Part shown: positions 33,461 to 63,483 of the stretch, one piece after another
Layout: each line of letters begins with the position of its first letter
Position numbering within the stretch: position 1 is the stretch's first letter
DNA from: Candidatus Aminicenantes bacterium
Lineage (GTDB): Bacteria > Acidobacteriota > Aminicenantia > Aminicenantales > Saccharicenantaceae
Length of the DNA stretch: 64,000 nucleotides
NCBI GenBank assembly: GCA_963773685.1
Contig: CAVZBY010000002.1
Coordinates: 274,038 to 338,037, forward strand
Direction: 5' to 3'
Translations under genes and position numbers: made by a program
Notes under the pieces: generated by a model
What the model was told of the DNA's origin: nothing
The model's input: only the letters and a program-made list of their open reading frames with translations
Database searches by the model: none

Positions 33461-33509
33461 AACGGCTCGAGAACGTGTCCCGCTTGGATGACCGGATAGG
33501 AGGTCTGTC

Positions 33510-38204: not shown

Positions 38205-38440
38205 GGCGTGTCAATCTTTTGATACGGATGTCAATTATATTTAACATTGCCCGCCCCTGTCAAGCGCCCGAAAGCCCGCTCGTTCCGTATCCAAATATCC
38301 GTATCGGCTGTAAACGGATGCCCGGCCGTTTTACATGATTCCGCATTTTCGGCCCGGTCCCTTCCCCTGTATCGATGGCACGTCTTTTGCAGAGGGGAGA
38401 TGCGCATCATCTCAAAGTCTATCGGATACAGGAGGCTGAT

Positions 38441-41283: not shown

Positions 41284-41348
41284 GTTCCTCCAACCTCTCG
41301 AACGGCTCCCCTTTAACGTTCCCGGACCTCGCGCGCGGGCCGGTCCGA

Positions 41349-41377
41349 TTGACAACGGGCGCAGGGCGGGATACGAT
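41349..41377 (+). promoter_or_regulatory. sigma70-like promoter candidate (TTGACA, 17-nt spacer, TACGAT) for the TPR-protein gene
   Basis: Sequence match about 40 nt upstream of the 41414 start. Confidence 0.3.
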
Positions 41378-41413
41378 AAATCCGTTAGAGCATGTCATCA
41401 CAGGAAGGATAGG

Positions 41414-42352
41414 GTGAGCCTCATGAGGAACGATCGCTCTCGTCTTGCGGCATGGGCTTTGGTCGCGGCCGTGCTATTCTGCGTCCAGAACCTGCCGGGC
41501 CCGGTCCAGGGCACGGTCAAGGGCGTGATCAAGGACAAGAAGGGAAATCCCCTCGAGGGCGCCAAGGTCACGGTCGTATCCATCCTGTACTCCGCCGTGA
41601 GGTACACGCTCAAGACCAATGCCAAGGGGGAGTTCATCCAGATCGGCCTCCAGCCCGACTACTATCAGATCAAGGCCGAGAAGGACGGGTTCCTGCCCTG
41701 CGTTCACGGAGAAGCACGTCGGCATCCAGGACATCGTCGAGGTCGTTCTGGAGCTCGAAGAAGGCAAGTACTTCATCGGGGCAGTCCCCGGGGGACAAGG
41801 ACTTCAAGCTGGGCAATGAGCTGTTCGTGGCCGGGAAATACGCCGGAGGCCGCGGAGGCCTACAAGACCGCCATCGGCAAGGAGCCGGGGGAGCCCGTCT
41901 ATTACGGCAATCTCGGATCGAGCTACCTGAAGCTCGGGAACATCGACGAAGCCCTGGCCGCGTTCAAGAAGATGCTCGAGGTCCAGCCGGAGAGCTATAG
42001 CGCGAATAAGAACATCGGCGAGATCCTCGGGGCCCAGAAGAAGTACGAGGAGGCGCTCCCGTACTTCCAGAAGGCCTCGGAGCTGAGCACGTCCGACCCG
42101 GACGCCTTCTACAATCTCGGGGCCTGCCTCGTCAACCTCCAGGACTACGAGAAGGCGGCGGCGGCCTTCACCAGGGCGATCGAGCTGAAGCCGGACCTCG
42201 CCCCGGCTTATTATCAGCTGGGGATGATCTACGTCAACCAGAACAAGAAGCCCGAAGCCATTCAGAACCTGGAAAAGTTCGTCGAGCTCGCGCCCGACGA
42301 TCCGAACGCCGCCGTGGCCAAGCAGATCCTGGCGTTCCTGAAATCGCAGTAG
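41414..42352 (+). CDS. carboxypeptidase-regulatory-like domain plus TPR-repeat protein, 2 frame shifts near 41700 and 41830
   Basis: Signal peptide, then GTVKGVIKDKKGNPLEGAKVTVVS..TNAKGEF..LQPDYYQIKAEKDGF, then a TPR run (..EAYKTAIGKEPGEPVYYGNLGSSYLKLGNIDEALAAFKKMLEVQPES..AFYNLGACLVNLQDYEKAAAAFTRAIELKPD..YYQLGMIY..). Confidence 0.5.
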   Translation: MSLMRNDRSRLAAWALVAAVLFCVQNLPGPVQGTVKGVIKDKKGNPLEGAKVTVVSILYSAVRYTLKTNAKGEFIQIGLQPDYYQIKAEKDGFLPCVHGEARRHPGHRRGRSGARRRQVLHRGSPRGTRTSSWAMSCSWPGNTPEAAEAYKTAIGKEPGEPVYYGNLGSSYLKLGNIDEALAAFKKMLEVQPESYSANKNIGEILGAQKKYEEALPYFQKASELSTSDPDAFYNLGACLVNLQDYEKAAAAFTRAIELKPDLAPAYYQLGMIYVNQNKKPEAIQNLEKFVELAPDDPNAAVAKQILAFLKSQ

Positions 42353-42379
42353 GCCGCGGGCGGGACCGAGGAGAGGACG

Positions 42380-44140
42380 ATGACCGGACAAGGACGGAAT
42401 TGGGCGCTCTGGCGTTGATCGTCGGAGGGGCGTTCCTGTCCGCCGGCCCGGCTCCGGCCGCGGCGGCCGCGGCGCACCGGGCCCCGGCGCCGTCCAGGAA
42501 GCGAAGAAGGCCGAGCAAGCGCCCGGCCCTCTCCGAGAAATACAAGAAGTGGCTGGACGAGGAGGTCGTCTATATCATCTCCGAGAACGAAAGGGACGTC
42601 TTCCGCAGTCTGCGGACCGACGCCGAGCGCGAGAACTTCATCAAGATGTTCTGGAAGCGGCGCGACCCGACGCCGGAGACCCCGATCAACGAGTTCCGCG
42701 AAGAGCACTACCGGAGGATCGCCTTCGCCAACGACACGTATTTCGAGGGGAAGGCGGGCTGGCGATCGGACCGGGGAAGGGTCTATATCATGTTCGGCCC
42801 GCCGGATTTCTTCGAGACGAACCCGGGCGGGGGAAGGGGCTTCCTCCTGGGGACCAACGCGCCCACCGCCGAGTTCCCGTCCGAGGTCTGGACCTACAGG
42901 GAGATCCCGGGGCTCAAGCTCCAGGAAAGCCGCGTCGATTTTACGTTCGTCAATTATTACGCCGCCGGGCTCCTACCAGCTGACGGACAACCCGGCCCTG
43001 GCCAACGCGCTCCGGAACATTTCGGTCCCCGCTCGCTACGCCGGATACAACGACTACCCGAGGGACAATAACTGATTCACCCCGACCGAGATCGCCGGAA
43101 GGTCCCAGAAGCCTACAAGCAGCCGCTCCAGCAGCTCCAGCTGATGGCCGAGCTGACCAAGTCGCGGGGAGAGGTCCTCGAGGAGCTCGAACGGAGCTCC
43201 CGGCAGAGGAAGCTCAAGGGGATCGTCGAGTCCAAGGCCTCGGTGAGCGCCTTGGCCGTCGTCTTCGAAGCAAAGCTTCCTCCGCGGATCGAACGGGATG
43301 ACCTACGTGCCCATGGTCCTCGAGGTGCCGGCGAAGGACGTGGAGTTCCGTCCCGTCAAGGACAGGTACCAGGGCCTCGTCAACTTCTATATCGAGGTGA
43401 AGGACGCGGACGGGCCGGTCTTCCAGAAGAGCGACAGGCTGGAGATGAACCTCAAGGAGGACAGCTACCGGCGAAGGGTCGCGGAGAACTATCAATATCT
43501 CCAGGGCGCGAGCCTGAAGCCCGGCCGGTACTTCCTCCACCTGGTCGTCTGGGACGAGATGAGCGGCAAGGTCGGCTATTCGGACCGCTGGATCGACGTG
43601 CCGGACATGGCGTCCGGAGAATTCGGCGCGAGCGATATCATCCTCGCCCGCGACATCCGGAGGCTCGAGGAGAAGACGCCGGAGGTCACGATCGACACGA
43701 AGGACCTCCCGGCCATGAAGACGCTCCGGACGACGGACCTCAAGGTCCCCGACAAGATGAGCATGCGCGGCCGCGGGGCGGCCCTTACACCTTCGGAGAT
43801 CTGGACGTCAATCCCGGCCATGACGCTCGGTCTATGCCAAGGGCGACGAGCTGGCCTATTTCTATCAGATCTACAACGCGACCTTCGATGAGGCCCTCGG
43901 CGTCGCCCGACTCCGGATCGAGGAACGGATCCTCAAGGGCGGCCAGACGGCCGCCGAGATCGCGCGATTCCGGCGACTTCCAGGTTCCGATCGCCCGCAA
44001 GACCGAGCAGGGGGATCAACCGGGGCAACCGGTTCCGCTTGCCGGACCTGGCCCCGGGGAAGTACGAGCTTGTCGTCCGGGTGAGGGACATCTTCTCGGG
44101 GAAGACCTCCGAGAAGAGGGCGGCATTCGAAGTGAAGTGA
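42380..44140 (+). CDS. GWxTD-domain protein #1 (Acidobacteria-type), several frame shifts
   Basis: GAGGAGAGGA ribosome-binding site. ..EKYKKWLDEEVVYIISENERDVFRSLRTDAERENFIKMFWKRRDPTPETPINEFREEHYRRIAFANDTYF..KAGWRSDRGRVYIMFGPPD.. contains the eponymous GWxSD motif. The pieces are collinear with GWxTD #2, and the gene ends ..ELVVRVRDIFSGKTSEKRAAFEVK*. Confidence 0.5.
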
Positions 44141-44215
44141 ATCCAGAAAAACGAATCCAATTCAAATTATTGGATAGTTCCCGTCGGCATGAGCCTTCCC
44201 GAGTCATTCTACTTA

Positions 44216-44232
44216 AATATTATGATATCATC
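44216..44232. promoter_or_regulatory. palindromic Fur-box-like operator candidate (AATATTATGATATCATC) in an AT-rich island about 250 nt upstream of TBDR #3
   Basis: TATGATATCAT is an 11/12 palindrome and resembles the TGATAAT half-sites of Fur boxes. It sits in an unusually AT-rich 160-bp stretch in front of a TonB-dependent receptor. Confidence 0.25.
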
Positions 44233-44472
44233 CACTTAGTCTCGAGTTCCAATGGCCATCACGGGATGGCACCGAACTTGCATAATACCGTAGGACAGGA
44301 AGGTATCTTGACAGGGGAGGAGTATACAGCCGACAAACCATGCAGAGAGCTCGGAAGGGCGGAGCGCCGTGCCCGGCATGGCTCTCCCGAGGGATTCCCG
44401 CGAGGCGGGAAGGAGCTTCGCGGGAGGGGGAAAACAACAAGATCCCATGACCATGGGATTCGGAGGAGTTGA

Positions 44473-47400
44473 ATGACCTTAAGAAAGCTGTCTTTTGTCT
44501 GTGTCGCTTTTCTTTTGGTGGCTTCTCTCGGAATGGCCCAGTCCAAGGATACGGGGAACTTCGTCGGGACCGTTTATCGACGTCGAGGGGGCCCCGCTCC
44601 CGGGCGTCACGGTTACGGCGAAGAACATCCAGATGGGCCTGGTCCAATCGACCGTGACCAACGACAGCGGGCGAGTACCGGATCGAGAGGCTGCCCCGCG
44701 GAATGTACACGCTGACCGCGGCCATCCAGGGCTTCAAGACGACGACCCGGGAAGGGCTCGAGCTCTCGATCGGCGGCCGAGAGTCAAGGTCAACTTCAAC
44801 CTGGAGATCGGAAAGCTCGAGGAGAATATCACGGTCATCGGCGTTTCGCCTCTGGTCGAGACGACGCGCGCCCAGGTCTCCACCGTCATCACCGAGAAGG
44901 AATTCCTGAGCTATCCGCAGGGCAACCGTGACTACACGTCCCTGATCGCCTACGCCCCGGGGACTTTGCCCGGCGCCGGCCGTTCCGGCTACGCGGTCAA
45001 CGGGATGCGCGGCTCTTCGAACAACTTCCAGATCGACGGCATCGACAACAACGACAACGGCACGGCCACCAATGCCGTGACGAGCATGCCGCCCGAATCC
45101 ATCCAGGAGTTCCGCCTGGTTTCCAACAACTTCTCGGCCGAGTACGGCCGGAACTCCGGCGGCGTCATCAACGCCGTCATGAAGTCCGGGACCAACGAGT
45201 TCCACGGCAGCGCCTGGATCTTCCATCGCGGGGGCAGCGCGCTGTTCCAGAGCGAAGACTGGCTGACCCACGACCTGCCTCCCTACAAGAGGTACCAGTA
45301 CGGCGCGACGGTCGGCGGCCCCATCATCAAGGACAAGACGTTCTTCTTCGCCTCGTTCGAAGGCGTCATCCAGGACGACGAGGCCCGGACGCCGCAGACT
45401 GTTCTTCACGCCGGAAGCCATCGCGCGGGCCCGGGACCGGCCAAGACTTACTTCGACAAGTACGGCTCCACCTATCCCAAGCCGACATACGATTTCGTCG
45501 ACATCGACGGCGACGGCCTCGTCGACGCCGGCAAGTATGTCTGGGACGGGACGACCAAGACCCGAGGCTACAACTTCGGCCTCAAGATCGACCACATCTT
45601 TTCCGAAAAGGACCGTATAGCCGTCCGCTGGCTCTTCAACACCTATAATTACGAGTGGGATTTCGCCGCAGCTTCCCGGTATCGTCAAGAAGAATCCCTA
45701 TTCCTATCACACCGGCGGCTTGACCTGGCTGCACCTCTTCAGCCCGACCACGTACAACGAAGTCCGGATCGGCTATCACCGGGACTACGCGGATTGGCCG
45801 CGGCTCGCCCCCGAGGTTCCGTCGATCGGCGGCTATTCCTTCGCCGACGACGTGACCGTCATCGGCGACTACCCGAACATGCCGCAGAAGTTCGCCAACA
45901 ATACCTATCAGCTGGTGGACGTCCTGAACTTCCAGGTCGGCAACCACAGCATCAAGCTCGGCGGCGAGGCCAGGCTCTGGAATTCGGACTCGACGTTCGA
46001 CGCCAACGTCGCGGGGAGCTTACTATTTCATCGATTCGACGTGGTTCCTCTATGACCTCGGCGCCTATTACCTTGTCATCGGGGCTGACCCGCCCAATCC
46101 GCCCGAGGGCAACCCCTACGTCACCGGCGCCGCCAGCGGCGAATGGAAGACCTGGCGATTCCCATCGGAAATGGCAAGGCTTCGAAGGCGGCCTGTTCGT
46201 CCAGGACGACTGGCGCGTGACGGACAAGCTGACCGTTTCCTTGGGCCTGAGATGGGAATACTACGGGGTCCCCAAGGAAAAATCCGGAGTGGGCATCAAC
46301 ATGCCCGCTTTCGGGACCAAGGCCGGCTTCGATGCGAACCCGAAGCAGATCATCGAAGGGAAGTTCGGCGAAGAGGGGATCAAGTACCTCATTTTCGACG
46401 GACGCCAGCAGCTCGGCAAGGGATTGTGGAATCCCTATTACAAGGCCTTCGCTCCCAAGGTCAGCTTCGCTTACGACCTGACCGGCGACGGCAAGACGTC
46501 GCTTCGGGCCGGGGCGGGCATCTCGTACGACCGGACCTTCAATAATACGTACGAGAATGACCGGTTCAACTATCCCGACTTCACGTTCGCGTCGATGGGC
46601 GGAGGGTACGGGTACGGCACGCCGTACATCAACGTCACTTATCCCGGGACCGTTCCCGCGGCGAACATCCAAGGATACAGGGCCGCCCTGCGCTGGATGC
46701 TGCCCGACCTCCTGCCTCAGAAGGCATATAACTGGCTGGTCGGCGTCCAGAGAGAGCTTTCGACGAACGTCTCCATCGAGCTCAACTACACCGGCTCCAA
46801 GGGCATGAACCTGGGCTCCATCCAGAGGCCGAACCGCTTCACCGGGGACAGGCTGGACGGGATCGCGGACGGGATCAACGCGTACACGGCCATCCGCGAC
46901 CTCAACCTGCGGACCCAGAACCTGAAGTCCGACTACTCCGCCTTCACGGCGACCATCAACAAGAGGTTCGCCAACGGCTGGTCCTGGTACACGGCCTACA
47001 CCTACGGCATCGCCAAGGACCAGAACTCCGACTATTTCGGGAGGCGACACGCGGAGCGGCACCGTCATGGAAGCCGTCTCCAACGAACGGATCGGCGACG
47101 AGTACGGCTACGCCCAGTTCGACCGTCGGCACAGGGTCGTCGGCGGCATGATCTTCGACATGCCCTTCTTTAAGAACTCCAAGAACTGGTTCCTGAGGAA
47201 CGTCGTCGCCGGCTGGCAGGTCTCCACCAATTTCCACTTCACCTCCGGCGCCGGCCGTTCACCATCAGGTCCACCTCGTCCTCCTACGATTGGAACAAAG
47301 ACTACGACTACAACGACAGGCCCCTGTGGATCGGACGGAGACAACTACCAGGAGCTCATCACTTGGACGAACGGACAGGCCCGGCTGGGACAAGAGCCTG

Positions 47401-47707
47401 TTCGCGTTCCCGGTTGCCCCGACGGCCGCCAGAGATCTCTCCTACTACGATCAGAATTTCGTCGCCGAGGAACTCGTTCCGGTGGTTCCCGACCCATAAC
47501 ATCAACATCTCCCTGCAGAAGTACTGGACGGTCCCCATGGCCGGGAGGGAATTCACGGTCCAGGCCATCTTCGAGGTCTTCAACGTCCTCAAGTCCTACT
47601 TCTGGGACCTTCCGTCCACGACTCCTGGACGTCCGCCCTGTTCGGCCAATCGCTGCGGATGAGCGGCCAGAGGACAGTCTCAAGTCTCGCTCCGGATCAT
47701 GTTCTAA
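44473..47707 (+). CDS. TonB-dependent receptor with a carboxypeptidase-regulatory-like domain (TBDR #3), many frame shifts
   Basis: Signal peptide MTLRKLSFVCVAFLLVASLGMAQS, ..IDVEGAPLPGVTVTAKN.., ..YRIERLPRGMYTLTAA.. (the CarbopepD_reg domain appears in shifted frames), plug and barrel blocks across at least 6 frames, and a C-terminal ..SLRIMF* aromatic end. Confidence 0.65.
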
Positions 47708-47734
47708 GGTTCACGCGCGCACACGAGCTCACAA

Positions 47735-47772
47735 GCCCTGCCCCGGCTTCGCCGGGGCAGGGCTTTTCTTTT
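47735..47772 (+). terminator. rho-independent terminator (GCCCTGCCCCGGC-TTCG-GCCGGGGCAGGGC plus TTTTCTTTT)
   Basis: Perfect 12-13 bp GC stem followed by a U-run, 28 nt after the TBDR #3 stop. Confidence 0.7.
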
Positions 47773-47815
47773 GAGGCGATTTGAAGCCATGAGCGGAGTC
47801 TGATATATTTTCAAT

Positions 47816-49960
47816 ATGGTGCGAGGCGGATCTGCACGGCCGGCATCGGTTTCTTTCTGCTCTTCACGGGCTCGGGGGCCCCGGGCCTCGCGGGCGGCGC
47901 AGGGCGAGATCCAACAGGGACGGGAAGCCTCAACGTCCTGCTCGTCACCCTGGATACGACGAGAGCCGACCATATCGGGGCCTACGGCTGGAGCAAGGCG
48001 AGGACCCCGAACCTCGATTCGCTGGCGGCCGGGGGGGTCAGGTTCGCGAACGCTTATTGCCCGGCGCCCGCTGACGCTCCCTTCCCATTGTTCCATCCTG
48101 ACGGGAACCTATCCTCTGTACCATAAGGTCCGCAACAACGGCTCCTACTATCCTGGCCCCGGAGGCCGTGACCCTGGCCGAGAGGCTCCGGGACCGGGGG
48201 TTCCGGACGTCGGCCTTCGTCGCCTCGTTCAACGTCGATTCCCGGTTCGGCGTGGACCAGGGTTTCGCCGTGTACGACGACCGTTCGACGACGACCAGAT
48301 GCTCAAGACGTTCCGGTCCGAGCGCAAGGCCGACAAGGTCGCCGACGCGTTCATCGGCTGGCTGGGGGCGAACGCCGGGAGCCGGTTCTTTTCCTGGGTC
48401 CATTTCTTCGACCCCCATATGCCCCACGATCCGCCCTCGCCCTATAAGGAGGAATTCGCCGGCGACCTCTACGACGGCGAGGTCGCGTTCGTGGACCACG
48501 AGCTGGGGCGGGTCATCGAGGCCCTGCGGGCGAAGGGCATCCTGGAGAGGACGCTCGTCGTCGTCGCCGGCGACCACGGCGAGGCGCTCGGCGAGAAGGA
48601 AGAGCTCGACCACGGCATCTTCATCTACGACGGGACGATGAAGGTCCCGCTGATCTTCTACGCGGACAAGCGCCTGCCCGGCGGGACGGGTCGTCGATGC
48701 CAGGGTCAGGCTCATCGATCTCATGCCGTCGGTGCTGGACATGATCGGGATCCCGGTGAACAAGGAGGTCCAGGGGACGAGCCTCATGCCCTACATCGAA
48801 GGCAAGAGGGACGACGACCTGCCCTGCTATCTCGAGTCCTACTATCCTCCGGAGACCTACGGCTGGTCGGAGCTTCGAGGCCTCGTCGACGGGGACTGGA
48901 AGTTCATCCGCGCCCCCCGTTCGGAGCTCTACGACCTGAAGACGGACCCGAAGGAGGAGAAGGACCTCGTCGCGCGCGAGGCCGGGACGGCCGCCCGGCC
49001 TCAACAGGAAGCTGGACGAGATCATCAAGGCCTACACTTCGAAGACGGAAGCCGGGCCGGAGGACGCTGACCCGGGAGGAGGAGGACCGCCTGCGGTCGC
49101 TGGGCTATATCGGGGCCGGATGCGTCGGTCAAGGTCGGGAAGGGCCCGCTTCCCGATCCCAAGGACCGGATGGACGAGTTCAAGATCCTCTTCAAGGCGA
49201 AGCTTCTGGAGTACCAGGGGGAACTTCACGGAGTCGGAGAAGTGCTATCGGGAGCTCCTCCGCCTCGAGCCGGACGTGTCCTGGCACTATATCGGGCTGG
49301 CCATCCTCCTGGCGAGGGACCGGAGGGTCGGCGACGGCATCGAGGTCCTGAAGGGCGGGCTCCGAAGACTGCCCGATTCGACGGTCCTGATGTCGCGGCT
49401 GGCCAGCTTCTACATGAGGGTCGGGAACTTCAAGGAGGCCTTCGCCATGAGCCAGGCCACCCTGAAGCGCGACCCGCGGCATCTCGACGCCTTGGTCATC
49501 GCCGGCTGGTCCGAGGACATGCAGGGCCGACTGGAAGGAATCGGCCGGGTATTTCGGGAAGGCCCTGAAGATCGAGCCGGAGAACAAGTACATCCGGCTG
49601 AAATATGCCTATGCCCTGGGGGCCCTCGGCCGGGGAGAGGAGGCCGCCCGGATCGACGAAGCTCTCAAGAAGGAGTATCCCGACGACCATCGGGTCCATG
49701 CCGACCTCGGCGATCATCTACGCGTCGATGAACAGGCTGGACCTGGCCGAGGAGAACCTGCGGAAGGCCGTCGAGCTCGAATCCCGGGCCCGATTCCTAT
49801 CTGAGCCTGTGCGGCGATCCTCGAGCGGACGGGCAAGCTCGAGGACGCCATCGCCTATCTGAAGCTGTTCCTCGAGACGTCGAAGGAAGGCGAAACGCCC
49901 CGGATCAACAAGGCCCGAAAGGCCCTCGCGGAATGGGAGCGGCGGATCAAAGGGCGATGA
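47816..49960 (+). CDS. sulfatase-family (alkaline-phosphatase superfamily, Thr-nucleophile type) domain fused to C-terminal TPR repeats, paralog #1, several frame shifts
   Basis: ..LNVLLVTLDTTRADHIGAYG.. (metal-binding DxxxD), ..LTLPSHCSILTGTYP.. (the sulfatase Cys/Ser position is Thr and the Arg is His), ..VVAGDHGEALGE..HG.., then TPRs (..CYRELLRLEPDVSWHYIGLAILL..). It ends ..EWERRIKGR* and overlaps the next start (ATGA). Confidence 0.65.
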
Positions 49961-52067
49961 GGCTCCCGGCGCTCCTCCTCGTCCTCGCCCTGCCGTCCGG
50001 CGCGTCCCGGGTCTTCTCCGCCGCGCGGCAGGGAAGAGGGCGACCCGAACGTCCTTCTCGTGACCCTCGACACGACGCGGGCGGACCACATCGGGGCCTA
50101 CGGATACGCGAAGGCCCGGACGCCGGTCCTCGATGCCCTGGCCCGGAACGGCGTCCGCTTCGCCAACGCTGTATTGCGCGACGCCGCTGACCCTCCCTTC
50201 GCACTGCTCGATCCTCACGGGGACCTATCCGCTCCGGCACAAGGTCCGCAACAACGGGTCCTATTATCTCGGAGACGATGCGGTGACGCTGGCCGAGAGG
50301 CTCAAGGAGAGCGGATACGACACCGCCGCGTTCGTCGCTTCGTTCAACACCGATTCGCGGTTCGGGCTCGGCCAGGGGTTCGACGTCTACGACGACCAGT
50401 TCCTCGAGGACGAGCTCCTGAAGGCGTTCAAGTCCGAGAGGACGGCCGACAAGGTCGCGGACGCGTTCATCTCCTGGCTGGGGGCGAAGCCCCGGGACCG
50501 CTTCTTTTCCTGGGTCCATTTTTTCGATCCCCATGCGCCTTATGAGCCTCCCGCGCCCTATAAAGAAAGGTTCGCCTCCGACCCCTATGACGGCGAGATC
50601 GCCTTCATGGACCACGAGCTCGGGAGGATCATCGAGGCCTTGAAGGCCAAGGGCCTTCTCGAGCGCACCCTGATCGTCCTGGCCGGAGACCACGGCGAAT
50701 CCCTGGGCGAGCACGGGGAGAGCGATCACGGCATCTTCATCTACGACGCCGCGATGAAGGTCCCTCTCGTCCTCCATGCCCCGGGGGCCCTTCCGCGGGG
50801 GACGGCCGTGGGCGCGCGCGTCCGGCTTATCGACATCATGCCGACCGTCCTCGATTGGCTGAAGGCGGGCGTGAATCCCGAGGTCCAGGGGACGAGCCTC
50901 CTGCCCTTCATCGAGGGGAAGAGGAAGGATGACCTGCCCTGTTACCTCGAGACCTTCTACCCGAGGGAGACCTTCGGCTGGTCCGAGCTCGTGGGGCTCG
51001 TCGATGCGGACCGGAAGTTCATCCGGGCCCCCCGTTCGGAGCTCTACGACATCGAAAAGGACCCCGGAGAGCTGAAGGACCTGGCCTCGAGGGAATCCCG
51101 GACGGCCACGGCCCTCAACAAGAAGCTCGACGAGGTCATCCGCGCCCACGTCTCGAACGCGGAACCGGGACGCAGGACCGTGACGGGGGCCGAGGCCGAC
51201 CGCCTGCGCTCCCTGGGCTACGTCGCGGCGGGCGCGGCCCCGACGTCCGGGAAAGGCCCTTTGCCGGACCCGAAGGACAAGATCGGGGAAAACGCCATCC
51301 TGTCGCGGGCGCGGCTCCTGGAAGCGGAGGGCAAGTACGCCGAATCGGAAAAGGAATATCGCGACCTGCTCCGCCTGCGGCCCGAGGTGCCCTGGAACTA
51401 CATCGTCCTGGGCCTCCTGCTGGCCAAGGCCGAGCGGGCGGACGAGGGCATCGAGGTCCTGCAGGACGGCCTGAGGAGGATACCGGATTCGCTCGACCTG
51501 CTCTCGAACCTGGCCGAGCTCCTATATGAGGGCCGGCAAGTTCCCCCAGGCTTCCGAGACGAGCCGTGATGTTCTGAAGCGCGACCCCCGGAATTTCGAC
51601 GCGATGGTCATCGCGGGCTGGTCCGAGGACATGCTCGCCCATTGGACGGAGCGCGGCCGGCTTCTACCGCATGGCCTTGGAGGTCGAGCCGGAGAACAAG
51701 ACCCTCCGGATGAAATATGCCTATGTCCTGGGCGCCCTGGGCCGGGGCGACGAGGCCGCCGGCCATGGATGAGGCGCTCAAGAAGGAGTATCCGGCGGAC
51801 CCGAAGATCCGGACCGATCTCTCGGTCATCTATACGGCCCTGGGGAAGATGGACCTGGCGGAGGAGAACCTCCGGAAGGCGGTCGCCCTGAGCCCGACGC
51901 CCGAGAATCATCATCGGCTGGCCTCGCTCCTCGGCCGGGTCGGAAAGCTCGAGGAGGCCGTCGTCCAGATGAAGCTCTATCTCAGGACGACCAAAGAAGG
52001 GGAGACGCCCCGGAAGGCCCGCGCCCGCGAGGCCGTCGCGGAATGGGAAAGGCGGATATCGAAATGA
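49957..52067 (+). CDS. sulfatase-family domain plus TPR fusion, paralog #2, several frame shifts
   Basis: MRLPALLLVLALPSGAS.., ..VLLVTLDTTRADHIGAYG.., ..LTLPSHCSILTGTYP.., ..VLAGDHGESLGEHGESDHGIFIY.., TPRs (..EYRDLLRLRPEVPWNYIVLGLLL..), ends ..EWERRISK*. Confidence 0.65.
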
Positions 52068-54174
52068 AGAGGCGCTGGGCCTGTCCTGGCCGTCGCGGTC
52101 CTCGCCGCGGGGGGACCGCTTCCCGGGAGCGCCGCGGGCGACGTGAAACGGGAGGAAGGGCTCAACGTCCTCCTCGTGACCCTGGACACGACGAGGGCCG
52201 ACCGTCTCGGCGCGTACGGATATGACAAGGCCCGGACGCCCGCCCTCGATGCCCTGGCGAAGAACGGGGTTCGGTTCGCGAACGCTTATTGCGAGGTCCC
52301 GATGACCCTGCCCTCGCACTGTTCCATCCTCACGGGAACCGGTCCGCTCTACCACAAGGTCCATAACAACGGGACCTATTACCTCAACAAGGACATCGTC
52401 ACCCTGACCGAGAGACTCAAGGCCAAGGGGTATGCGACGGCGGCGTTCGTCAGCTCGTTCAACGTGGACTCCCGCTTCGGCGTCGGGAAAGGGTTCGATG
52501 TCTTCGACGACCGGTTCCGCGACGACGAGATGATGAAGACCTTCCGTTCGGAGAGGCGGGCGGGGGAGACCACGGCGGCCTTCCTCCGCTGGCTGGACGG
52601 GCGGGGGGACGGACCGTTCTTCTCATGGATCCATTATTACGACCCCCATACGCCCTATAAACCCCCGTCGCCGTTCCGGGAACAGCTCGCTCCGACCCGT
52701 ACGACGGCGAGATCGCCTACATGGACGAGTGCTTCGGGAAGGTCCTGGCGCGGCTCCGCGAAAAGAACCTGCTCGAGCGGACGCTCATCGTGGTCGCCGC
52801 CGACCACGGCGAGGCCTTTGGAGAGCGGGGGGAGCTGGGTCATGGCGTTTTCATCTACGACGTCACGATGAAGGTCCCGCTCCTCATCCACGCCCCCAAG
52901 AACCTTCCGGCGGGCCTGGTCGTCGCGTCGCGGGTCAGGCTCATGGATATCATGCCGACCGTCCTGGACGCGCTGAAGATGCCCGCGGGCAAGGAGGTCC
53001 AGGGGACGAGCCTTCTGCCCTACATCGAGGGTCGAAGGAAGGACGATCTTCCCTGCTACATGGAAAGCTATTATCCGCTGGAGACCTACGGCTGGTCCGA
53101 GCTGGTCGGCCTCGTCGACGGCGACTGGAAATTCATCCGCGCCCCGCGGCCCGAGCTCTATGATCTCAAGTCGGACCCGGCGGAGATGCGGGACCTCGTC
53201 CAGAAACAGGCGGGGCGGGCCTCGGGCGATGATGCGCGAGCTCAAGGACATGATCGCCGCGTCCGCATCCGACCTCGGCCAGAGCCGGAGGAAGCTCAGC
53301 CGGGAAGAGGAGGAGCGCCTGAGGTCTCTCGGCTACGTGGGGAGCGACGCTTCGGTCCGTGTCGGCAAAGGCCCGCTTCCCGACCCCAAGGACATGATGT
53401 CCGAGTTCCAGATCCTCTACCGGGCCAAGACGAACGAATGGGACGAGAAATGGGACGCCGCGGAGAAGGATTACCGGGAGATCCTCCGCCTCCAGCCCGA
53501 CGTCGCCTGGCGTTATGTCGACCTGGCGATCTTCCTGACGATCCGGGACAGGCTCCCCGATGCCATCGAGGTCCTCAGGCAGGGGCTGGCGCGGATGCCG
53601 GATTCCTTCGTCCTCCTCACGCGGCTCGCCCATCTGGAGATGGGTGCGGGCCGATACGACGAGGCCTACGAAATGAGCCAGGCGGCCCTCCGGATCGACC
53701 CCGGGTATTTCGACGCCCTGGTCATCGCCGCCGGGGTCGAGGACGTCCGCGGCCATTGGGAGGCTTCCGAAAAGGATCTACCGGCGGGCCCTCGCGGTCG
53801 AGCCCGAGAACAAAAAGGTCCGGATGAAGCAGGCCTATCGCGCTGGGAGCCATGGGGCGGGGAGAGGAGGCCGTGAAGATCGACGAGGCCTTGAAGGCGG
53901 AATACCCCGACGACTCCCGGCTCCGCCAGGACCTGGGCGTGATCTACGCCGACCTCGGCCGATGGGACCTGGCCGAAGAGAACATGAGGAAGGCCGTCGA
54001 GCTCCAGCCGTCGCCCGAGACCTGGTTCAACCTCGCGTCCGTCCTCGAACAGGCGGGGAACCTCGCCGAGGCCGTCCGCTATCTCAGGCTCTACATCGAG
54101 AAGACCACGGAGGGCGAGACGCTCCGCAAGGCGAACGCCCGGAAGGCCCTGGCCGATTGGCAGAGGCGCGCTGA
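52064..54174 (+). CDS. sulfatase-family domain plus TPR fusion, paralog #3, several frame shifts (3' end approximate)
   Basis: MKRRWA then a frame shift, then ..LNVLLVTLDTTRADRLGAYG.., ..MTLPSHCSILTGTGP.., ..VVAADHGEAFGERGELGHGVFIY.., TPRs (..DYREILRLQPDVAWRYVDLAIFL..), ending ..LADWQRR. The true stop is masked by a frame change within 54170..54215. Confidence 0.6.
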
Positions 54175-54223
54175 AGCCGCCGGAGGGCCCGTGACCGATA
54201 ATCGGAAAACCATGGAGGTTCAG

Positions 54224-55668
54224 ATGAAAACAAAAGGTCATCGTCCTGGCGACCCTGCTCGTCGTCGGTCTCGCCGGGCTCGTCCCGAGCGCGTCCGCGG
54301 CGAAGAAGGAGCCGGACAAGTACGAGAAGTGGCTCAAGGAAGAGGTCCCGCTCCTCATCCTTCCCGAAGAGAAGGCCGAGTTCGAAAAGCTCAAGACGGA
54401 CGAGGACAAGGACCGGTTCATCGAGCTGTTCTGGGCCAAGAGGGACCCGTCGCCCAACTCCAAGGTCAACGAGTTCCGGGACGAGTGGATGGCGCGGCTC
54501 GCGCACGTCACCAAGGCCTATGCGGCCGGCGTCGGGCCCAAGGGCTGGCGCTCGGATATGGGCAAGGTCTATCTGTTCTTCGGGCCCCCGGCCCAGGTCC
54601 AGGGAGGGGCGACCGGGGTGAGGCGCGAGTCCACGGAAGGGTCCCAGATGGATGCCCCGTCCGAGACCTGGGTCTATCCGCCGATGCCCGACCTCAGCCT
54701 GACCGACCAGTTCCCGATCATTTTCCGGAACTATCAGTTCGGGTACGAGCTCGACCCGGCGACCCCCCAGAAGATCCGCCGGGCCATGGAGGTCTTCCCC
54801 AAGGTCGTCGTCTTCAACCCCGACCTCAAGGAACTGCCGATGTACAAGTACGTCCTGGACGAGAATTCTCTCGGAGGGCAAGATGATCCGGGACTTCATC
54901 GCGACCGGGAACGAGATCAAGGGAATCGCCCTCGAGTGGGCGCCGATTTACACCCGGGCCATGGGCGGCAGCACGTATGTCTCCCTGCTCGTCCAGGTCG
55001 ACCCGGGGACCATCGACCGGAAGAAGCTGAAGGAAACGACCTTCTTCGGCCGTCTCAAGGGCGACGGCGAGGAGGTCCAGGACTTCCTGACGACGGTCCG
55101 GGTCGAAAAGGAGAAGGCCGACAAGCTGGTCATGGTCTTCGGCTTCCCCGCCAAGCCCGGAAGGTCGGTCCTCTATCTCGGCGCGGAGGACAAGGACAAG
55201 GAGAACCCGACCCTGCTCAAGGCCGACTTGGACGTCAAGGATTTCTGGAAGGGCGAGCTCGATACGAGCTCCCTCATCCTCAGCTCCGAGGTCGTCTCCA
55301 AGCCCAAGGAAGAAGCGGCCGGGGAATTCAGCCCCTACGTCACGAGCGATTACCGGGCCACGCCACGATGGGGAAGCGTCTTCCGGGCGAACGAGGACCT
55401 GAGCGTCCTGTTCCACATCTACAACGCCGCGTTGCAGAACGGCGAGGTCGATCTGATCGTCGACTACTTCATCATTTCGGCCGAGGTGGGCTTTCGGCTG
55501 AATCCGCAGACGATCCGGGCGAAGGTCGAGGAGAACCAGGCCGTTGCCGGAGGAACCCAGGTTCCGCTGTCCCCGCTCAAGCCCGGAAAATACACGTTCA
55601 AGATCAAGATCACCGACAAGATCGCCAACAAGACGATCGATCGGACCACGGAATTCGCGGTCGAATAA
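54224..55668 (+). CDS. GWxTD-domain protein #2, 2 frame shifts (in the aaaacaaaa homopolymer at the start, and near 54880)
   Basis: MKTK then a frame shift, then ..VIVLATLLVVGLAGLVPSASAAKKEPDKYEKWLKEEVPLLILPEEKAEFEKLKTDEDKDRFIELFWAKRDPSPNS..GPKGWRSDMGKVYLFFGPP.. (the GWxSD motif). It continues in ORF 54883..55668. Confidence 0.6.
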
Positions 55669-55679
55669 GGGGGGAGCCG

Positions 55680-56288
55680 ATGAAACGAAACTTCCCGGTG
55701 TTGGCCCTTTGCGGACTGGCGGTCCTGGCCGCGGCGTGCGCGACCGTCGCCCCGGCGGGGACGGGGGGCGAGGCGTCGCGGGCGGCGACGTTCAGCTACA
55801 AATGGGAGGACACGAACCTGGCGATCGTCCTGGACGTCGAGCTGGCCCGGAGGCGCACGGACGAAGCCTATTTTCCCCTGGGCATCAAGATCGCCAACAA
55901 GCGCCTGAATAGGATCATCGTCGACCGGGAGACGCTCTTCCTGGTCGATGAGAACGGGACCGTTTACCCGATGCCGTCGGTCGAGGAGCTGTCGCTCCAG
56001 TACAACAAGCTCGTCCCGGACAACAAGTTCAAGAGCCAGACCGGCGTCCTGGGGGACGAGATGATGACCGGATTCACGATGTACCGGAAGGCCGTCGGGA
56101 GGCTCTTCCCGCAGACCCAGGGCGGCGGACGGACCGTGGATTCCATCTACGTCCAGAAGAACGGCTACATGGAGGACCTCGTCTATTTCCCGATGCCCGA
56201 GGGCGGGATCAAGGGAAAGACCCTCAGGCTCAGGCTGGACGTCTATGAGCTGGGCAAGCCGCTCGATGTCGCGTTCCGCGTCGAATAG
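55680..56288 (+). CDS. putative lipoprotein / secreted protein of unknown function
   Basis: MKRNFPVLALCGLAVLAAACATVAP.. is a signal peptide with a lipobox-like AAAC. 202 aa, intact, 11 nt after GWxTD #2. No family recognised. Confidence 0.45.
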   Translation: MKRNFPVLALCGLAVLAAACATVAPAGTGGEASRAATFSYKWEDTNLAIVLDVELARRRTDEAYFPLGIKIANKRLNRIIVDRETLFLVDENGTVYPMPSVEELSLQYNKLVPDNKFKSQTGVLGDEMMTGFTMYRKAVGRLFPQTQGGGRTVDSIYVQKNGYMEDLVYFPMPEGGIKGKTLRLRLDVYELGKPLDVAFRVE

Positions 56289-56354
56289 ACCTTCCCGAGC
56301 CTTGGCCGGGTCCTGGCGGCCGCCGGCGCGGCCGTCCTGGCCCTCGGAGCCTCG

Positions 56355-57167
56355 GTGCCGCCGGCCGGACAGGATCCGGCGGGGACGGAACCGGCGGCGT
56401 GGAGCCGGGAGGTCAAGGAGGATTTCCTGCGGACGGCGGAGATCGTCAGCACCAAGGTCATCACGGAGGGAACGACGCGGTCGGAGCGCGCCACCCTCCA
56501 GGACGCGCGGGGCGTCCATGACGCCCACATCCAGAAGATCGACGTGTCCGCGACCAAGTTCGAGGGCGTCGGGGGGCAGTGGGAGCTCAATTTCCGGGAC
56601 ACCTGTAAGTTCAACCTGGCCGCTTACATCCTGAACCGCCTCCTGGGGATGAACATGATCCCGCCGACGGTCGAGCGGAAGGTCGGCAAGCGGCCGGCGG
56701 CCGTGACCTGGTGGATCGACGATGTCCTGATGGATGAAAAGGAGCGGCTCGAGCGGGAGGTGCTCCCGCCGGTCCCGGAGAGGGACCGCTGGAACCGTCA
56801 GATCCATATCGTCCGCGTCTTCGACCAGCTCATCGCCAACAAGGACCGGAACATCGAGAATATCATCATCACCCGCAGCTGGGACGTCTGGATCATCGAC
56901 CACACGCGCGCCTTCCGCGCCTATAAGCAGCTCCTCAGCTCCGACGACCTGGTCCGTTGTGACCGGGTCCTGCTCGAGGCGATGCGCCGGCTGGACAAGC
57001 CGACCGTCGTCGAAAAGCTCGGGGCTTATCTTACGGACCTGGAGATCGACGGGATCCTGGCGCGTCGCGACAGGATCGTCCGGTTCTTCGACGCCAAGGC
57101 CGCCGGGGAAGGCGGGGATACCGTGCTGTTCGATTATCTCTCCGAGCGGAAGGTCGACGGACCCTGA
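56355..57167 (+). CDS. atypical protein-kinase-like (PKL/APH-type catalytic-loop) domain protein, probably exported. N-terminus uncertain
   Basis: ..VFDQLIANKDRNIENIIITRSWDVWIIDHTRAF.. resembles the D(L/R)xxxNI(L/I)(L/I) catalytic loop and the xIDFG/IDH activation segment of ePK/APH-like kinases. The in-frame upstream ..RVLAAAGAAVLALGAS.. looks like a signal-peptide h-region but lacks a start codon, so a frame shift or rare start is likely. Confidence 0.4.
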   Translation: MPPAGQDPAGTEPAAWSREVKEDFLRTAEIVSTKVITEGTTRSERATLQDARGVHDAHIQKIDVSATKFEGVGGQWELNFRDTCKFNLAAYILNRLLGMNMIPPTVERKVGKRPAAVTWWIDDVLMDEKERLEREVLPPVPERDRWNRQIHIVRVFDQLIANKDRNIENIIITRSWDVWIIDHTRAFRAYKQLLSSDDLVRCDRVLLEAMRRLDKPTVVEKLGAYLTDLEIDGILARRDRIVRFFDAKAAGEGGDTVLFDYLSERKVDGP

Positions 57168-57192
57168 AAGGAATGAACGGCGAGCCCCGCGC

Positions 57193-57456
57193 TCAGGCCA
57201 GGAACCGCAAGCCGTAGCGGGTGCTGGCGCTCGCCGGCACGGCCCAGACGACCTCGGCCCGGAGGGGAAGGCTCATCGACGGCTCCGGACCGGGGATCAG
57301 GATCCGGATAATGTCCTTTTCGCGAAGGGAGAGACGGGTGATCAGTCCGATCCCTCCCTGGCTGATGTCCACGGCCTGGGCGAGGAATTGCATGGCGGCG
57401 GGAACTCCCGCCCGTCTCATCGAGGGTCCCCGGCTCGAAATAAACCGGCCCGGCAT
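57193..57456 (-). CDS. stand-alone PilZ-domain protein (c-di-GMP receptor), copy 2
   Basis: 87 aa. ..RGPSMRR.. then ..AVDISQGGIGLIT.. (the RxxxR and DxSxxG PilZ motifs). Paralog of the upstream copy; both end GLRFL(A/S). Confidence 0.5.
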   Translation of the reverse strand: MPGRFISSRGPSMRRAGVPAAMQFLAQAVDISQGGIGLITRLSLREKDIIRILIPGPEPSMSLPLRAEVVWAVPASASTRYGLRFLA

Positions 57457-57521
57457 GGGACCACCGCCGATGGGCCCGGTTCTCCGCTCGGTTTTCCACG
57501 TTGTCCCTCACCTCACCGCGA

Positions 57522-57821
57522 TCAGGACAGGAACCGGAGGCCGGAGCGGAACTTGGCGCCTTCGGGCTTCGACCAGACCACCCCCGCGGCCACCGGGAGG
57601 TTCACGGTCAGGTCCGGCATCGGGAACAACAGGCGCACGGCCTCGTCCGGGACGAGCGGCTGAGGGGTGATGAGGCCGATGCCGCTCTGGCTGATGTCGG
57701 TTCCGTGGGCCATCACCGAGGAGTAGCCCGGATTCTCCGCGGACACGGAGAGGCGTTCGATATAAACGGGCTTGAGGTGCGGCCGGCGCGAATGAGACCT
57801 TTTGTCGTCGTAGAGTTCCAT
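57522..57821 (-). CDS. stand-alone PilZ-domain protein (c-di-GMP receptor), copy 1
   Basis: 99 aa. ..RSHSRRPH.. (RxxxR) then ..GTDISQSGIGLIT.. (DxSxxG). GGAGAAGGGGG ribosome-binding site upstream. Confidence 0.55.
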   Translation of the reverse strand: MELYDDKRSHSRRPHLKPVYIERLSVSAENPGYSSVMAHGTDISQSGIGLITPQPLVPDEAVRLLFPMPDLTVNLPVAAGVVWSKPEGAKFRSGLRFLS

Positions 57822-58010
57822 CCCCCTTCTCCTTATATTACTAATATATAGGCCCCCGGTCCCTGTCTGTCAACTAGGACCTCACCCCTCTCACCCCTTG
57901 AGGGGAGGGGGAGACCCCGAAAATCACCCCCGGATATCATCCTCCGAAGCGATTCCCCCCGGGGACCGGGTAGAGGATGATTCCATCCTCGACGCTCAGG
58001 ATCGACTAAA

Positions 58011-59878
58011 TTGGCAGAGATGCAAAAGCCTGGAAACGGCACGAAGCGGAATGCCTGCCGCGCGGGGCGGGGTCCGCGTGCGGGCCGGGAGCGCCGGCGT
58101 CCGGCCGCCCGGGAGATCGACGACCTGCGACGCCGGGCCCACCAGGCCGAACGGGAGGCCCAGGCCGCGAAGGCCCGACTGGAACATCTCCTCAGCGCGA
58201 GCTCGGGCGTCATCCTGAGCTGCCGGGCCGCCGATCACGGGGCCACCTTCGTCAGCCGGAGCGTGAAGACGGTCCTCGGTTACGAGCCCGACGAGTTCCT
58301 GAAGGAGCCGGCTTTCTGGCTCGAGGCCGTCCATCCCGAGGACCGGGAAGAGGTCGAGGCCATGTTCGCTTATGTCAGCGAGGTCGGGAACCTTGTCCAC
58401 GACTTCCGGATAAGGCACAGGGACGGAGGGTATCGCTGGCTCCGCGACGAGCTCCGCCTGTCCGTTCCTTCCGACGGGCGGGGGGCCGGCGAGATCGCCG
58501 CCTACTGGATCGACATCACCGAATCCAAGTCGCTCGAGGAACAGTACCTCCACGACGCCTTCCATGATACCCTGACCAACCTCCCGAACCGCGCCCTATT
58601 CGAGGACCGCCTCCGGGTATCCTTCGCCCGGGGCCGCCGGCGGAAAGGCTCCACGTTCGCCGTCCTGTACGTCGATCTCGACCGCTTCAAGAACGTCAAC
58701 GAGAGCCTGGGGCATGCCTTGGGGGACCGGCTCCTGGTGGCGGCGTCACGAGGCTGTTGAAGTGCGTCCGATTCGGGGACATCGTCGCCCGGCTCGGCGG
58801 AGACGAGTTCATCATCATCCTCGAGGACATCAAGGACCGGGCGGACATCGAAACGACGGCGGCGCGCATCCAGACGGAGATCGGGCGCCCCTACGACCTC
58901 GGCGGGGAGACGGAGGCGTTCGCCTCGGTCAGCATCGGTATCGCCATCGCCCACCCGGCCCTCGAAAGGCCCGAGCACCTTGTCCGGGACGCCGAGACCG
59001 CGATGTTCCGGGCGAAGGCCTCAGGCCGGGCCTGCCACGTCGTCTTCGACGGCGCCATGCGCGACAAGGCCATGACCGCCCTCCGGCTGGAAACGGACCT
59101 CCGGCGCGCGGTCGAGAGGAACGAGTTCGTCCTCTATTACCAGCCGATCTGCCGGCTGAAGGAAGGGACCGTGGCCGGGTTCGAGGCGCTTATCCGGTGG
59201 CGCCACCCGACACGTGGCCTGATCCTCCCGGGCCAGTTCATCTCCCAGGCCGAGGAGACGGGGCTCATCGTCCCGATGGGAGAATGGGCGCTCCGGGAAG
59301 CCTGCCGGCAGATGCGGGCCTGGCAGGAGGCCTTCCCGGGGACCCCGCCGCTCGGCATCAGCGTCAACCTCTCCAGCAAACAGCTCCTGCCGGGGTTCGC
59401 GGACCGTGTCCGGGACATCCTCTTCGAAACGGGGCTCGAGCCCTCCTCCCTGCAGCTCGAGATCACGGAAAGCACGATCATCGACGATCCCGATTGGGCG
59501 GCGGGCCTCTTCGCGGAGCTCCGGAACATGAAGGTCCGCGTCCTCATCGACGACTTCGGGACGGGGTACTCGTCCATGAACTACCTCAGCAAGCTCTCGA
59601 TCGACGGGCTGAAGATCGACCGGAGCTTCATCGGCGCCATGAGCCCGTCGGGGGAGGGGCTGGAGATCGTCCGGATGATCCTGGCCCTCGCCCGGAACCT
59701 GGGCCTCACGGTCGTGGCCGAGGGCGTCGAGACGGCCGAGCAGATGGAATTCCTGAGATGGCTGAACGGCGAGTTCGCCCAGGGGTTCTACTTCGCCGAG
59801 CCGCTGGACGCCTCCGCGGCCGAGCGGTTCCTGGCCGCCAAGACGAAGGGAGCGTCGGCGACCCGTCCCGGCCTCTGA
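58011..59878 (+). CDS. PAS-GGDEF-EAL c-di-GMP turnover protein, 1 frame shift near 58745
   Basis: N-terminal coiled-coil, PAS (..FVSRSVKTVLGYEPDEFL..VHPEDREEV..), GGDEF (..NLPNRALFEDRL.., RLGGDEF in the second frame) and EAL (..FEALIRW.., EITES, DDFGTGYSS, QGFYFAEP). TTG start. Confidence 0.8.
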
Positions 59879-59895
59879 AGCCCCGCCATCGTGGC

Positions 59896-59924
59896 TTGCC
59901 AATTGCCTCCTCCGGTCCTATAAT
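59896..59924 (+). promoter_or_regulatory. near-consensus sigma70 promoter (TTGCCA, 17-nt spacer, TATAAT) 26 nt upstream of the S9-peptidase gene
   Basis: Direct sequence match. AAAGGAG ribosome-binding site at 59937. Confidence 0.55.
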
Positions 59925-59949
59925 CCCCATCTTCGCGAAAGGAGCGTCC

Positions 59950-63444: not shown

Positions 63445-63483
63445 GCCCCGAGCCGATTCAGGACGTGGGCAGGCGACGGTCCG

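Follow-up and report, generated by a model that had tools for sequence, protein, structure and literature searches.

Three tandem sulfatase-like genes with a threonine at the nucleophile position and a C-terminal repeat array in a Candidatus Aminicenantes bacterium

The described proteins closest to the three genes considered here, in sequence and in structure alike, are the S1 sulfatases and the phosphonate monoester hydrolases (PMHs), among them YidJ, AslA, PsS1_NC (PDB entry 6PT4), the Rhizobium PMH (2VQR) and the Agrobacterium enzyme (4UPH). These enzymes have a fold of two subdomains, matched by the Pfam families PF00884 and SGSH_C. Their active site contains a Cys or Ser that becomes formylglycine, the Arg of the C/S-x-P-x-R signature, a GKWH motif and a distal Lys. 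A second group, EptA, MCR-1 and LptA together with LtaS and OpgB, uses a Thr nucleophile in an extracytoplasmic catalytic domain, which is preceded by an N-terminal multi-pass membrane domain, and takes lipid donors. The nucleotide pyrophosphatases/phosphodiesterases (NPP, PF01663) have the motifs DGFRxD and TFPNH. The three genes, called g1, g2 and g3, are situated in a stretch of 64,000 nucleotides from a Candidatus Aminicenantes bacterium (assembly GCA_963773685.1, contig CAVZBY010000002.1, positions 274,038 to 338,037 of the forward strand), referred to below as the window. Each gene encodes a sulfatase-like catalytic module, in which Thr occupies the nucleophile position, followed by a C-terminal array of tetratricopeptide repeats (TPR).

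With slightly better than even confidence, g1, g2 and g3 are read as intact genes for secreted two-module enzymes, a Thr-nucleophile phosphoesterase joined to a TPR array, that belong to a cassette for nutrient acquisition at the cell envelope. Judged from the residues retained and replaced in the active site, the proteins most likely act as secreted phosphoesterases that depend on metal and use Thr as the nucleophile.

The listing of open reading frames (ORFs), combined with translation of the three forward frames between 47.7 and 54.3 kb, gives three Sulfatase-TPR coding regions in tandem on the forward strand (positions 47816-54191). A tblastn search of the whole window with the stitched middle copy finds exactly these three and none elsewhere, in agreement with the first-pass annotation. 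The stitched, frame-corrected proteins have 715, 702 and 705 residues. Their pairwise identities are 65% (g1/g2), 60% (g1/g3) and 58% (g2/g3), slightly above the 50-60% estimated at first. Adjacent genes are joined by ATGA overlaps at 49957-49960 and 52064-52067, which would couple the translation of the three paralogs. The motifs T-L-P-S-H, LDTTRAD and DHGE, which had been reported for all three copies, are located in each frame-corrected gene (Table 1), as are the further common motifs W-x-H-x-x-D-P-H, YDGE and EPENK. The EWERRI ending that had been ascribed to all copies is found in g1 and g2 only, and g3 ends in DWQRR. The stop codon of g3 is most likely the TGA at 54189-54191, past an inserted base near 54169, and not at 54174, where the end of the array had been placed.

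In a phmmer alignment the T-L-P-S-H motif falls on C-S-P-S-R of PsS1_NC column for column, with Thr on Cys84. In YidJ (CTPAR) the residue aligned with this Thr is Cys, in AslA (SSPTR) it is Ser, and the motif His takes the place of the signature Arg in all three enzymes. The GKWH motif of YidJ aligns with A/S-F-N/V, and the Lys/His pair is thus lost in the clade. A second His, situated 12 residues past the His of DHGE and invariant, aligns with the distal Lys of YidJ and AslA and also with the His of the LHG motif of EptA, which corresponds to His478 of MCR-1. The clade DHGE aligns with the DHGE of EptA. Retained in common with the S1 sulfatases and PMHs are the first metal-ligand Asp, the D-H/N pair and the His of PH-x-P, and the metal motif begins with DT as in YidJ. 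The authors of SulfAtlas pointed out that oxidation of Thr would give a ketone and that formylglycine has never been shown to arise from Thr; 30 of the 59 seed sequences of PF00884 have Thr at this position and are regarded as not demonstrated sulfatases (PMC5066984). With Thr at the nucleophile position, the paralogs therefore cannot be formylglycine sulfatases, and on both the position of the Thr and the exclusion of formylglycine the first-pass annotation was right.

These residues are strongly conserved. The motif T-L-P-[SA]-H is found in about 95% of 150 cluster representatives, and DT[TL]RAD and [GAS]DHGE are conserved to a similar degree. The D, T, R and D of LDTTRAD are invariant in both alignments that were made (A1 and A2). 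Residues D41, T81, D247 and H248 and the histidines 85, 190, 195 and 260 are invariant or nearly so among representatives that are 30-45% identical overall. H190, D193, H195 and H260 are invariant and, by sequence, are candidate ligands of a second metal ion. In MCR-1 and LptA the equivalents of Glu246, Thr285, Asp465 and His466 bind Zn1, and the equivalents of His395 and His478 bind a second Zn in LptA (PMC5031297). The picture that emerges is that of a sulfatase scaffold whose catalytic residues are like those of NPP or EptA.

The scaffold itself is that of the sulfatases. Among the NCBIfam models every score is below its cut-off: the best is arylsulfatase (173.9 bits, 4e-51, against a cut-off of 481), followed by choline-sulfatase (140.2 against 433), PehA (127 against 900), EptA (42.6 bits, 2e-11, against 561) and LtaS (22.4 bits, 4e-5, against 970), while the LapC profile matches weakly, as that of EptA does. 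The best PDB sequence matches of the catalytic domain are all S1 sulfatases or PMHs, among them 6pt4 and 4uph (1e-34 to 1e-33). This was further examined with an AlphaFold2 model of the intact ortholog P0003 (mean predicted local distance difference test (pLDDT) value 81). A Foldseek comparison of this model with the PDB returned only S1 sulfatases or PMHs among the best 50 matches, the top one being 9fo1 (2.6e-22), and no NPP was present among these 50. A clade profile, built from 140 catalytic domains and scored against E. coli reference enzymes taken from NC_000913.3, gave E-values of 8e-54 for YidJ, 3e-23 for AslA, 3e-18 for LapC/YejM, 2e-13 for EptA and 2e-5 for OpgB. Membership in the LtaS/EptA/OpgB branch, which the first-pass annotation had favored, is not supported, in view of these profile scores, the fold matches and the missing membrane domain. 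Only about 25-30 residues precede the catalytic domain, and all that is seen there is a signal peptide or, in some members, one N-terminal helix. A paralog has no Pfam match to EptA_B_N or DUF3413, whereas EptA and LapC have them, and EptA, OpgB and LapC all have dedicated membrane domains. The paralogs appear to be secreted proteins with an N-terminal signal peptide, as predicted from their sequences.

The features in common with the EptA-type enzymes are the Thr nucleophile, the Asp-His pair of DHGE, the His 12 residues further on and the predicted extracytoplasmic position of the catalytic domain. The differences, besides the signal peptide in place of a multi-pass domain, are that the first metal ligand is Glu in the EptA-type enzymes and Asp in the paralogs, and that the former have neither SGSH_C nor TPR. 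The relation to NPP is of another kind. PF01663 matches g2 above its gathering score in Pfam and 64 of 64 sampled clade members at E<=0.001, whereas YidJ and EptA have no match and AslA is below the threshold. The Asp-His pair is common to both, and D-x-x-R-x-D and T-x-P-x-H resemble the NPP motifs. However, the fold matches of the paralogs are sulfatases, and PF00884 scores much higher than PF01663.

The remaining relatives are proteins that lack the repeat array and are named sulfatase-like hydrolase/transferase (WP_277506315, WP_152404553 and WP_276256217). They are encoded on plasmids of cultured haloarchaea and Paenibacillus, have the Thr nucleophile and D-x-L-R-x-D in common with the clade, and are about 30% identical to it. 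On the clade profile they reach 250-283 bits and outscore YidJ, which has 171. They differ from the paralogs in their length of 420-477 residues, in the absence of TPR and in the fifth motif residue, which is Ser, Tyr or Leu and not His. These distant relatives show that the sulfatase-like scaffold has a wider Thr-type branch. The searches made showed no characterisation of these proteins. In two haloarchaeal plasmids (L091, NZ_CP120472.1, and L093, NZ_CP119797.1) the relatives adjoin a family-4 glycosyltransferase and a membrane protein resembling lysyl-phosphatidylglycerol synthase, which hints at envelope modification as the role of the haloarchaeal branch. The plasmid collection contains no close member of the TPR-bearing family (identity <=33.5%), and its three best matches, when translated, are also of the Thr type.

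The C-terminal array is the other feature by which the paralogs differ from the S1 enzymes. In the model of P0003 it comprises 20 helices (residues 441-704) predicted with high confidence, whereas the linker that precedes it (residues 406-435) has pLDDT values below 50. The LRSLGY and DPKD motifs, at the boundary between catalytic module and array, are invariant or nearly so in A1 and A2. Two near-invariant motifs thus fall, clade-wide, in a flexible linker of low confidence, which is unusual conservation for such a segment. This linker may be a docking peptide.

The fusion is the common architecture in what is a very large clade. A word-indexed search returns more than 7,900 proteins at E<=1e-10, and nearly all of the 120 matches listed are full-length Sulfatase+TPR proteins of 700-770 residues; the names attached to those listed are "arylsulfatase A-like enzyme/...TPR" (Joint Genome Institute, JGI) and "sulfatase-like hydrolase/transferase [Ca. 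Aminicenantes]" (MCK5058413.1). An exhaustive search of representatives at 50% identity gave a best 150 that all have E<1e-101, with a median length of 735 residues, and TPR are present in 58 of 64 randomly sampled representatives of this kind. The suggestion in the first-pass annotation that the fusion is non-standard is not supported by this census, on which a rare architecture is rejected. A scan of the GTDB species representatives gave at least 598 stretches, and most of the loci listed belong to Aminicenantes, Acidobacteriota, Thermoanaerobaculia, Planctomycetota and Phycisphaerae. Each paralog has its own orthogroup, with 21 (g1, including P0019-P0037), 16 (g2) and 19 (g3) clear orthologs, and the triplet is syntenic in a second locus, L001. 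The triplication is thus old and maintained, as the first-pass annotation had supposed in calling the copies old duplications. Literature searches, including those for TLPSH, for PF00884 with TPR and TonB and for Aminicenantes with sulfatase, returned no paper on the Sulfatase+TPR family.

No continuous ORF exists for g1, g2 or g3 in the window, where about 24 insertions of one or two bases interrupt them. Reading the genes as whole, as had been done at first, meant crossing these frameshifts silently, although the description was correct in essence. Frameshift-aware alignment to the intact orthologs of L001 requires 13 frame changes in g1, 5 in g2 and 5 in g3, and a sixth break in g3, at 52085, was found by DNA alignment to the locus L090 (GCA_040960625.1). 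The breaks are not confined to these genes. Over window positions 41300-59950, measured against L001, there are 56 frame changes in 17.8 kb, about one per 317 bp, and 11 of the 13 syntenic genes are hit, including the upstream TonB-dependent receptor gene with about 14 frameshifts. In-frame stops are almost absent across the 13 genes. After correction, the identity to L001 is 68-94% (78-94% in all but one short PilZ gene), g1 being 82% identical to S1 of L001 and g2 78% identical to S2. The DNA of L090 is 93.3% identical to positions 51566-63455 of the window and carries an intact g3 ortholog of 714 residues (P0059, 96% identical), so that the identity of the frame-corrected paralogs to intact orthologs spans 78-96%. 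All g3 breaks (52085, 52690, 53228, 53777, 53839 and 54169) are insertions of one or two bases in the window relative to L090, and so are the g2 breaks at 51650 and 51759 in the 3' part that could be aligned. Because the neighboring genes are equally noisy and a 93%-identical relative carries the intact gene, the breaks are attributed to assembly error and not to gene decay. The genes g1, g2 and g3 should therefore be read as intact in vivo, with the breaks as insertion errors of the assembly. An origin in homopolymers was considered but is not supported, since only 15 of the 49 insertions and deletions relative to L090 are next to an identical base and most breaks are outside homopolymers.

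The noise probably extends over the whole window. At about one inserted base per 300 bp, any ORF-based reading of this DNA needs frame correction, and naive ORF calls yield fragments or false fusions. An ORF of 713 residues at 794-2932 on the forward strand, for instance, combines an RNase_H_2/DNA-polymerase-exonuclease domain with an alcohol-dehydrogenase N-terminal domain, and most likely reflects two genes falsely joined by an inserted base. The receptor gene of L001 is called as two overlapping pieces (4541-5824 and 5814-7769), which indicates at least one insertion or deletion there too; the three Sulfatase-TPR genes of L001 are whole.

The window is colinear with L001 from 41.4 to 59.8 kb. 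The order of the genes is a CarboxypepD_reg-TPR protein, a GWxTD protein, an Oar-type TonB-dependent receptor, the three Sulfatase-TPR genes, a second GWxTD protein, a 202-residue putative lipoprotein, a 308-residue protein of unknown family, two PilZ genes on the opposite strand and a PAS-GGDEF-EAL gene. The part downstream of g3, up to the 308-residue protein, has the same order in L001, L086 and L090. The enzymes are thus surrounded by a cassette of uncharacterised envelope proteins (window 41423-44137 and 54231-57161; L001 1515-4218 and 14268-17215). The two GWxTD proteins of the cassette differ from each other, and a literature search found no paper mentioning GWxTD. The same cassette is present with two or three Sulfatase-TPR copies in L002, L086/L087 and L090. 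The arrangement in L088 is different, with one copy followed by two receptors. Sortilin/BNR genes are found directly upstream of the family member of L088.

Considering the family as a whole, a receptor is present within 2.5 kb in 23 of 79 genome loci, and tandem copies are present in 13 of the 79. A strict test for the C-terminus of a receptor directly upstream was positive in 3 loci only, the C-terminus being too divergent for tblastn, and a test for the N-terminus was used instead. With this test, 13 of 55 informative loci have a same-strand receptor N-terminus at a distance of 2.7-4.2 kb upstream, and lineages of only 35-37% identity are among them. The association with the receptor is real, if moderate.

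Between the receptor gene and g1 there is a terminator-like hairpin, followed by a promoter-like site (Table 1). The hairpin is kept in L001 and also in L086, where one pair has changed in compensatory fashion (T-A to C-G). Together, the hairpin and the promoter-like site hint at a separate, nearly leaderless transcript for g1.

Several other features of the region were recorded. The cassette is followed by a cyclic di-GMP module, in which two tandem PilZ genes (57196-57821, reverse strand) diverge from the PAS-GGDEF-EAL gene (58011-59842, forward strand); this module is kept in L001 and L090. Further Oar-type receptor genes are at 12968-15733 (reverse) and 38339-39967 (forward), a large Sortilin/BNR-repeat protein is encoded at 29714-33307 (reverse), and secA is at 33492-36008 (forward). 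A tRNA-Arg(ACG) gene at 5091-5165 (forward) is the sole RNA gene found in the window by ARAGORN and Rfam.

Table 1. Positions of the three paralogs, their motifs and domains, and the neighboring features. Positions are those of the window unless given as residues of g2.
Feature	Position	Strand	Remarks
TonB-dependent receptor, CarboxypepD_reg + Plug + OMP_b-brl_4 (Oar-like)	44473..47704	+	colinear with L001 4541-7769; Pfam domains of the L001 ortholog
Terminator-like hairpin	47733..47765	+	15-bp stem with 12 G-C pairs, then TTCTTTT; between receptor gene and g1
Promoter-like site	47781..47809	+	TTGAAG, 17-nucleotide spacer, TATATT, TG extension; consensus match only; ends 7 nucleotides before the g1 ATG
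Paralog g1	47816..49960	+	signal peptide (predicted), catalytic module, linker, TPR array; about 715 residues after correction, 13 frame changes
L-D-T-T-R-A-D, bearing the first metal-ligand Asp	g1 47950-47970, g2 50066-50086, g3 52182-52202	+	
T-L-P-S-H	g1 48074-48088, g2 50190-50204, g3 52305-52319	+	nucleophile Thr of g1 at 48074-48076
D-H-G-E	g1 48572-48583, g2 50688-50699, g3 52802-52813	+	
D-H-G-E through second His	g1 48572-48631, g2 50688-50747, g3 52802-52861	+	HGIFIYD in g1; second His 12 residues past the DHGE His
Linker motifs LRSLGY and DPKD	g1 49091-49166, g2 51204-51278, g3 53319-53393	+	boundary of catalytic module and TPR array
TPR array of g1	about 49170-49957	+	part of paralog g1
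Paralog g2	49957..52067	+	702 residues after correction, 5 frame changes; ATG overlaps the g1 stop (ATGA)
PF00884 Sulfatase	g2 residues 30-302		Pfam E 2.8e-47
PF01663 Phosphodiest	g2 residues 32-247		Pfam E 4.4e-16; 59.9 bits, gathering cut-off 23; overlaps PF00884 and is weaker
SGSH_C	g2 residues 250-392		Pfam E 8.8e-14
Several TPR families	g2 residues 445-680		Pfam; TPR_14 3.9e-14 and others
TPR array of g2	about 51280-52064	+	part of paralog g2
Paralog g3	52064..54191	+	about 705 residues after correction, 6 insertions of 1-2 bases each; ATG overlaps the g2 stop (ATGA)
TPR array of g3	about 53395-54188	+	part of paralog g3
GWxTD-domain protein	54231-55665	+	downstream of g3, tightly packed
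Putative lipoprotein, 202 residues	55680-56285	+	downstream of g3
Protein of unknown family, 308 residues	56352-57161	+	downstream of g3; no Pfam match

These observations are consistent with the following mechanism. The catalytic module of about 400 residues belongs to the superfamily of alkaline phosphatases and has an alpha/beta core and an SGSH_C-type subdomain, built on the scaffold of the formylglycine sulfatases and PMHs. Its active site has been re-equipped, with Thr in place of formylglycine, His in place of the Arg of C-x-P-x-R, loss of the Lys and His of GKWH, and His in place of the distal sulfate-binding Lys. What remains would be an Asp/Thr/Asp-His metal site like that of alkaline phosphatase, NPP and EptA, with invariant His residues around it. 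A metal-activated Thr alkoxide might then attack a phosphate ester, either a mono- or a diester, forming a phospho-Thr intermediate that would be resolved by water, so that the protein would act as an extracytoplasmic phosphoesterase and not as a sulfatase. The TPR solenoid of about 270 residues, carried on the flexible linker, would serve to bind either a polymeric substrate or another protein as partner. That the genes share a cassette with the Oar-type receptor and with GWxTD proteins suggests that they take part in acquiring nutrients at the cell envelope.

A number of points weigh against this interpretation. In overall sequence and fold the proteins come closest to true sulfatases, and the preference for phosphoryl over sulfuryl chemistry comes from the identities of the residues. 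No biochemical data on any family member were found. A second metal site, made up of His195 and His260, is a candidate only, and His195, in DPHxP, is a residue that we take, from superfamily structure comparisons, to be the equivalent of His395 of MCR-1. The fifth residue of the nucleophile motif, His, is not retained in the more distant Thr-type relatives. With regard to the receptor, the conserved terminator-like hairpin parts its gene from g1, and with three Oar-type receptors in the 64-kb window some adjacency is expected by chance.

A more far-reaching proposal, to be held only tentatively, is that the family constitutes a distinct, still uncharacterised enzyme class, possibly an intermediate between sulfatases and phosphodiesterases, whose TPR arm docks to the Oar-type transporter, the enzyme either processing what is imported or being exported by the transporter itself. 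The Oar-dependent secretion of PopC in Myxococcus (PMC6434023) offers an analogy for a transporter that exports an enzyme to the cell surface.

It is unlikely that the paralogs are membrane-associated transferases of the LtaS/EptA/OpgB type, in which the Thr moves phosphoethanolamine or phosphoglycerol from a lipid to an envelope glycan while the TPR array binds either the acceptor or a partner in secretion. EptA does have a matching Thr nucleophile and DHGE-x9-HG spacing, the EptA and LapC profiles of NCBIfam give their weak matches, some clade members (P0028 and P0036) have an N-terminal membrane anchor, and TPR scaffolds are common in exopolysaccharide export systems. However, the multi-pass lipid-binding domain (EptA_B_N or DUF3413) is missing, the similarity in profile and fold is far below that to sulfatases, and the conserved cassette contains no exopolysaccharide or lipopolysaccharide biosynthesis genes.

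Still less probable is that the proteins are catalytically dead scaffolds, with a fold that does no more than bind a ligand and with the function residing in the TPR array. Such arrays are protein-interaction modules, and E. coli LapC/YejM, annotated as a signal transducer despite its PF00884 domain, would be an analogy. Against this, the full set of metal and nucleophile residues has remained invariant or nearly so at low overall identity, as expected of an active enzyme. There is even less reason to regard them as ordinary sulfatases, as the automatic names imply. Sulfatases head the matches in Pfam, NCBIfam, PDB and Foldseek alike, and the JGI naming agrees with this; but the C/S-x-P-x-R signature is absent, the sulfate-binding Arg and both Lys residues are replaced, Thr cannot yield formylglycine (PMC5066984), all NCBIfam sulfatase models are far under their cut-offs, and no gene for a formylglycine-generating enzyme or an anaerobic sulfatase maturase is present within about 9-10 kb in L001, L086, L088 and L090. 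That the frame breaks are real and the genes decaying pseudogenes is just as implausible: a public contig of 353,463 bp shows the same broken ORFs (the central ORF of g2, 478 residues, is P0018, 100% identical, and P0273, 215 residues on the same contig, is presumably a fragment of g3), but one-base insertions occur at equal density in the neighboring genes, down to the GGDEF-EAL and receptor genes, are absent from the 93%-identical contig and leave all catalytic motifs intact, and similar fragments are found on other long-read contigs.

The interpretation of g1, g2 and g3 as genes for secreted phosphoesterases has consequences for annotation. The family is catalogued yet uncharacterised, and its "arylsulfatase" label is probably mistaken. 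Automatic pipelines apply the names "arylsulfatase A-like" or "sulfatase" to thousands of sequences of this clade in Aminicenantes, Acidobacteriota and Planctomycetota. Because thousands of proteins so labelled cannot be sulfatases, the "sulfatase" counts from which the degradation of organosulfur compounds and polysaccharides is deduced in such uncultured lineages are probably inflated. The clade also represents a natural test of how changes of nucleophile and charge shift a scaffold of the alkaline-phosphatase superfamily from sulfate to, probably, phosphate chemistry.

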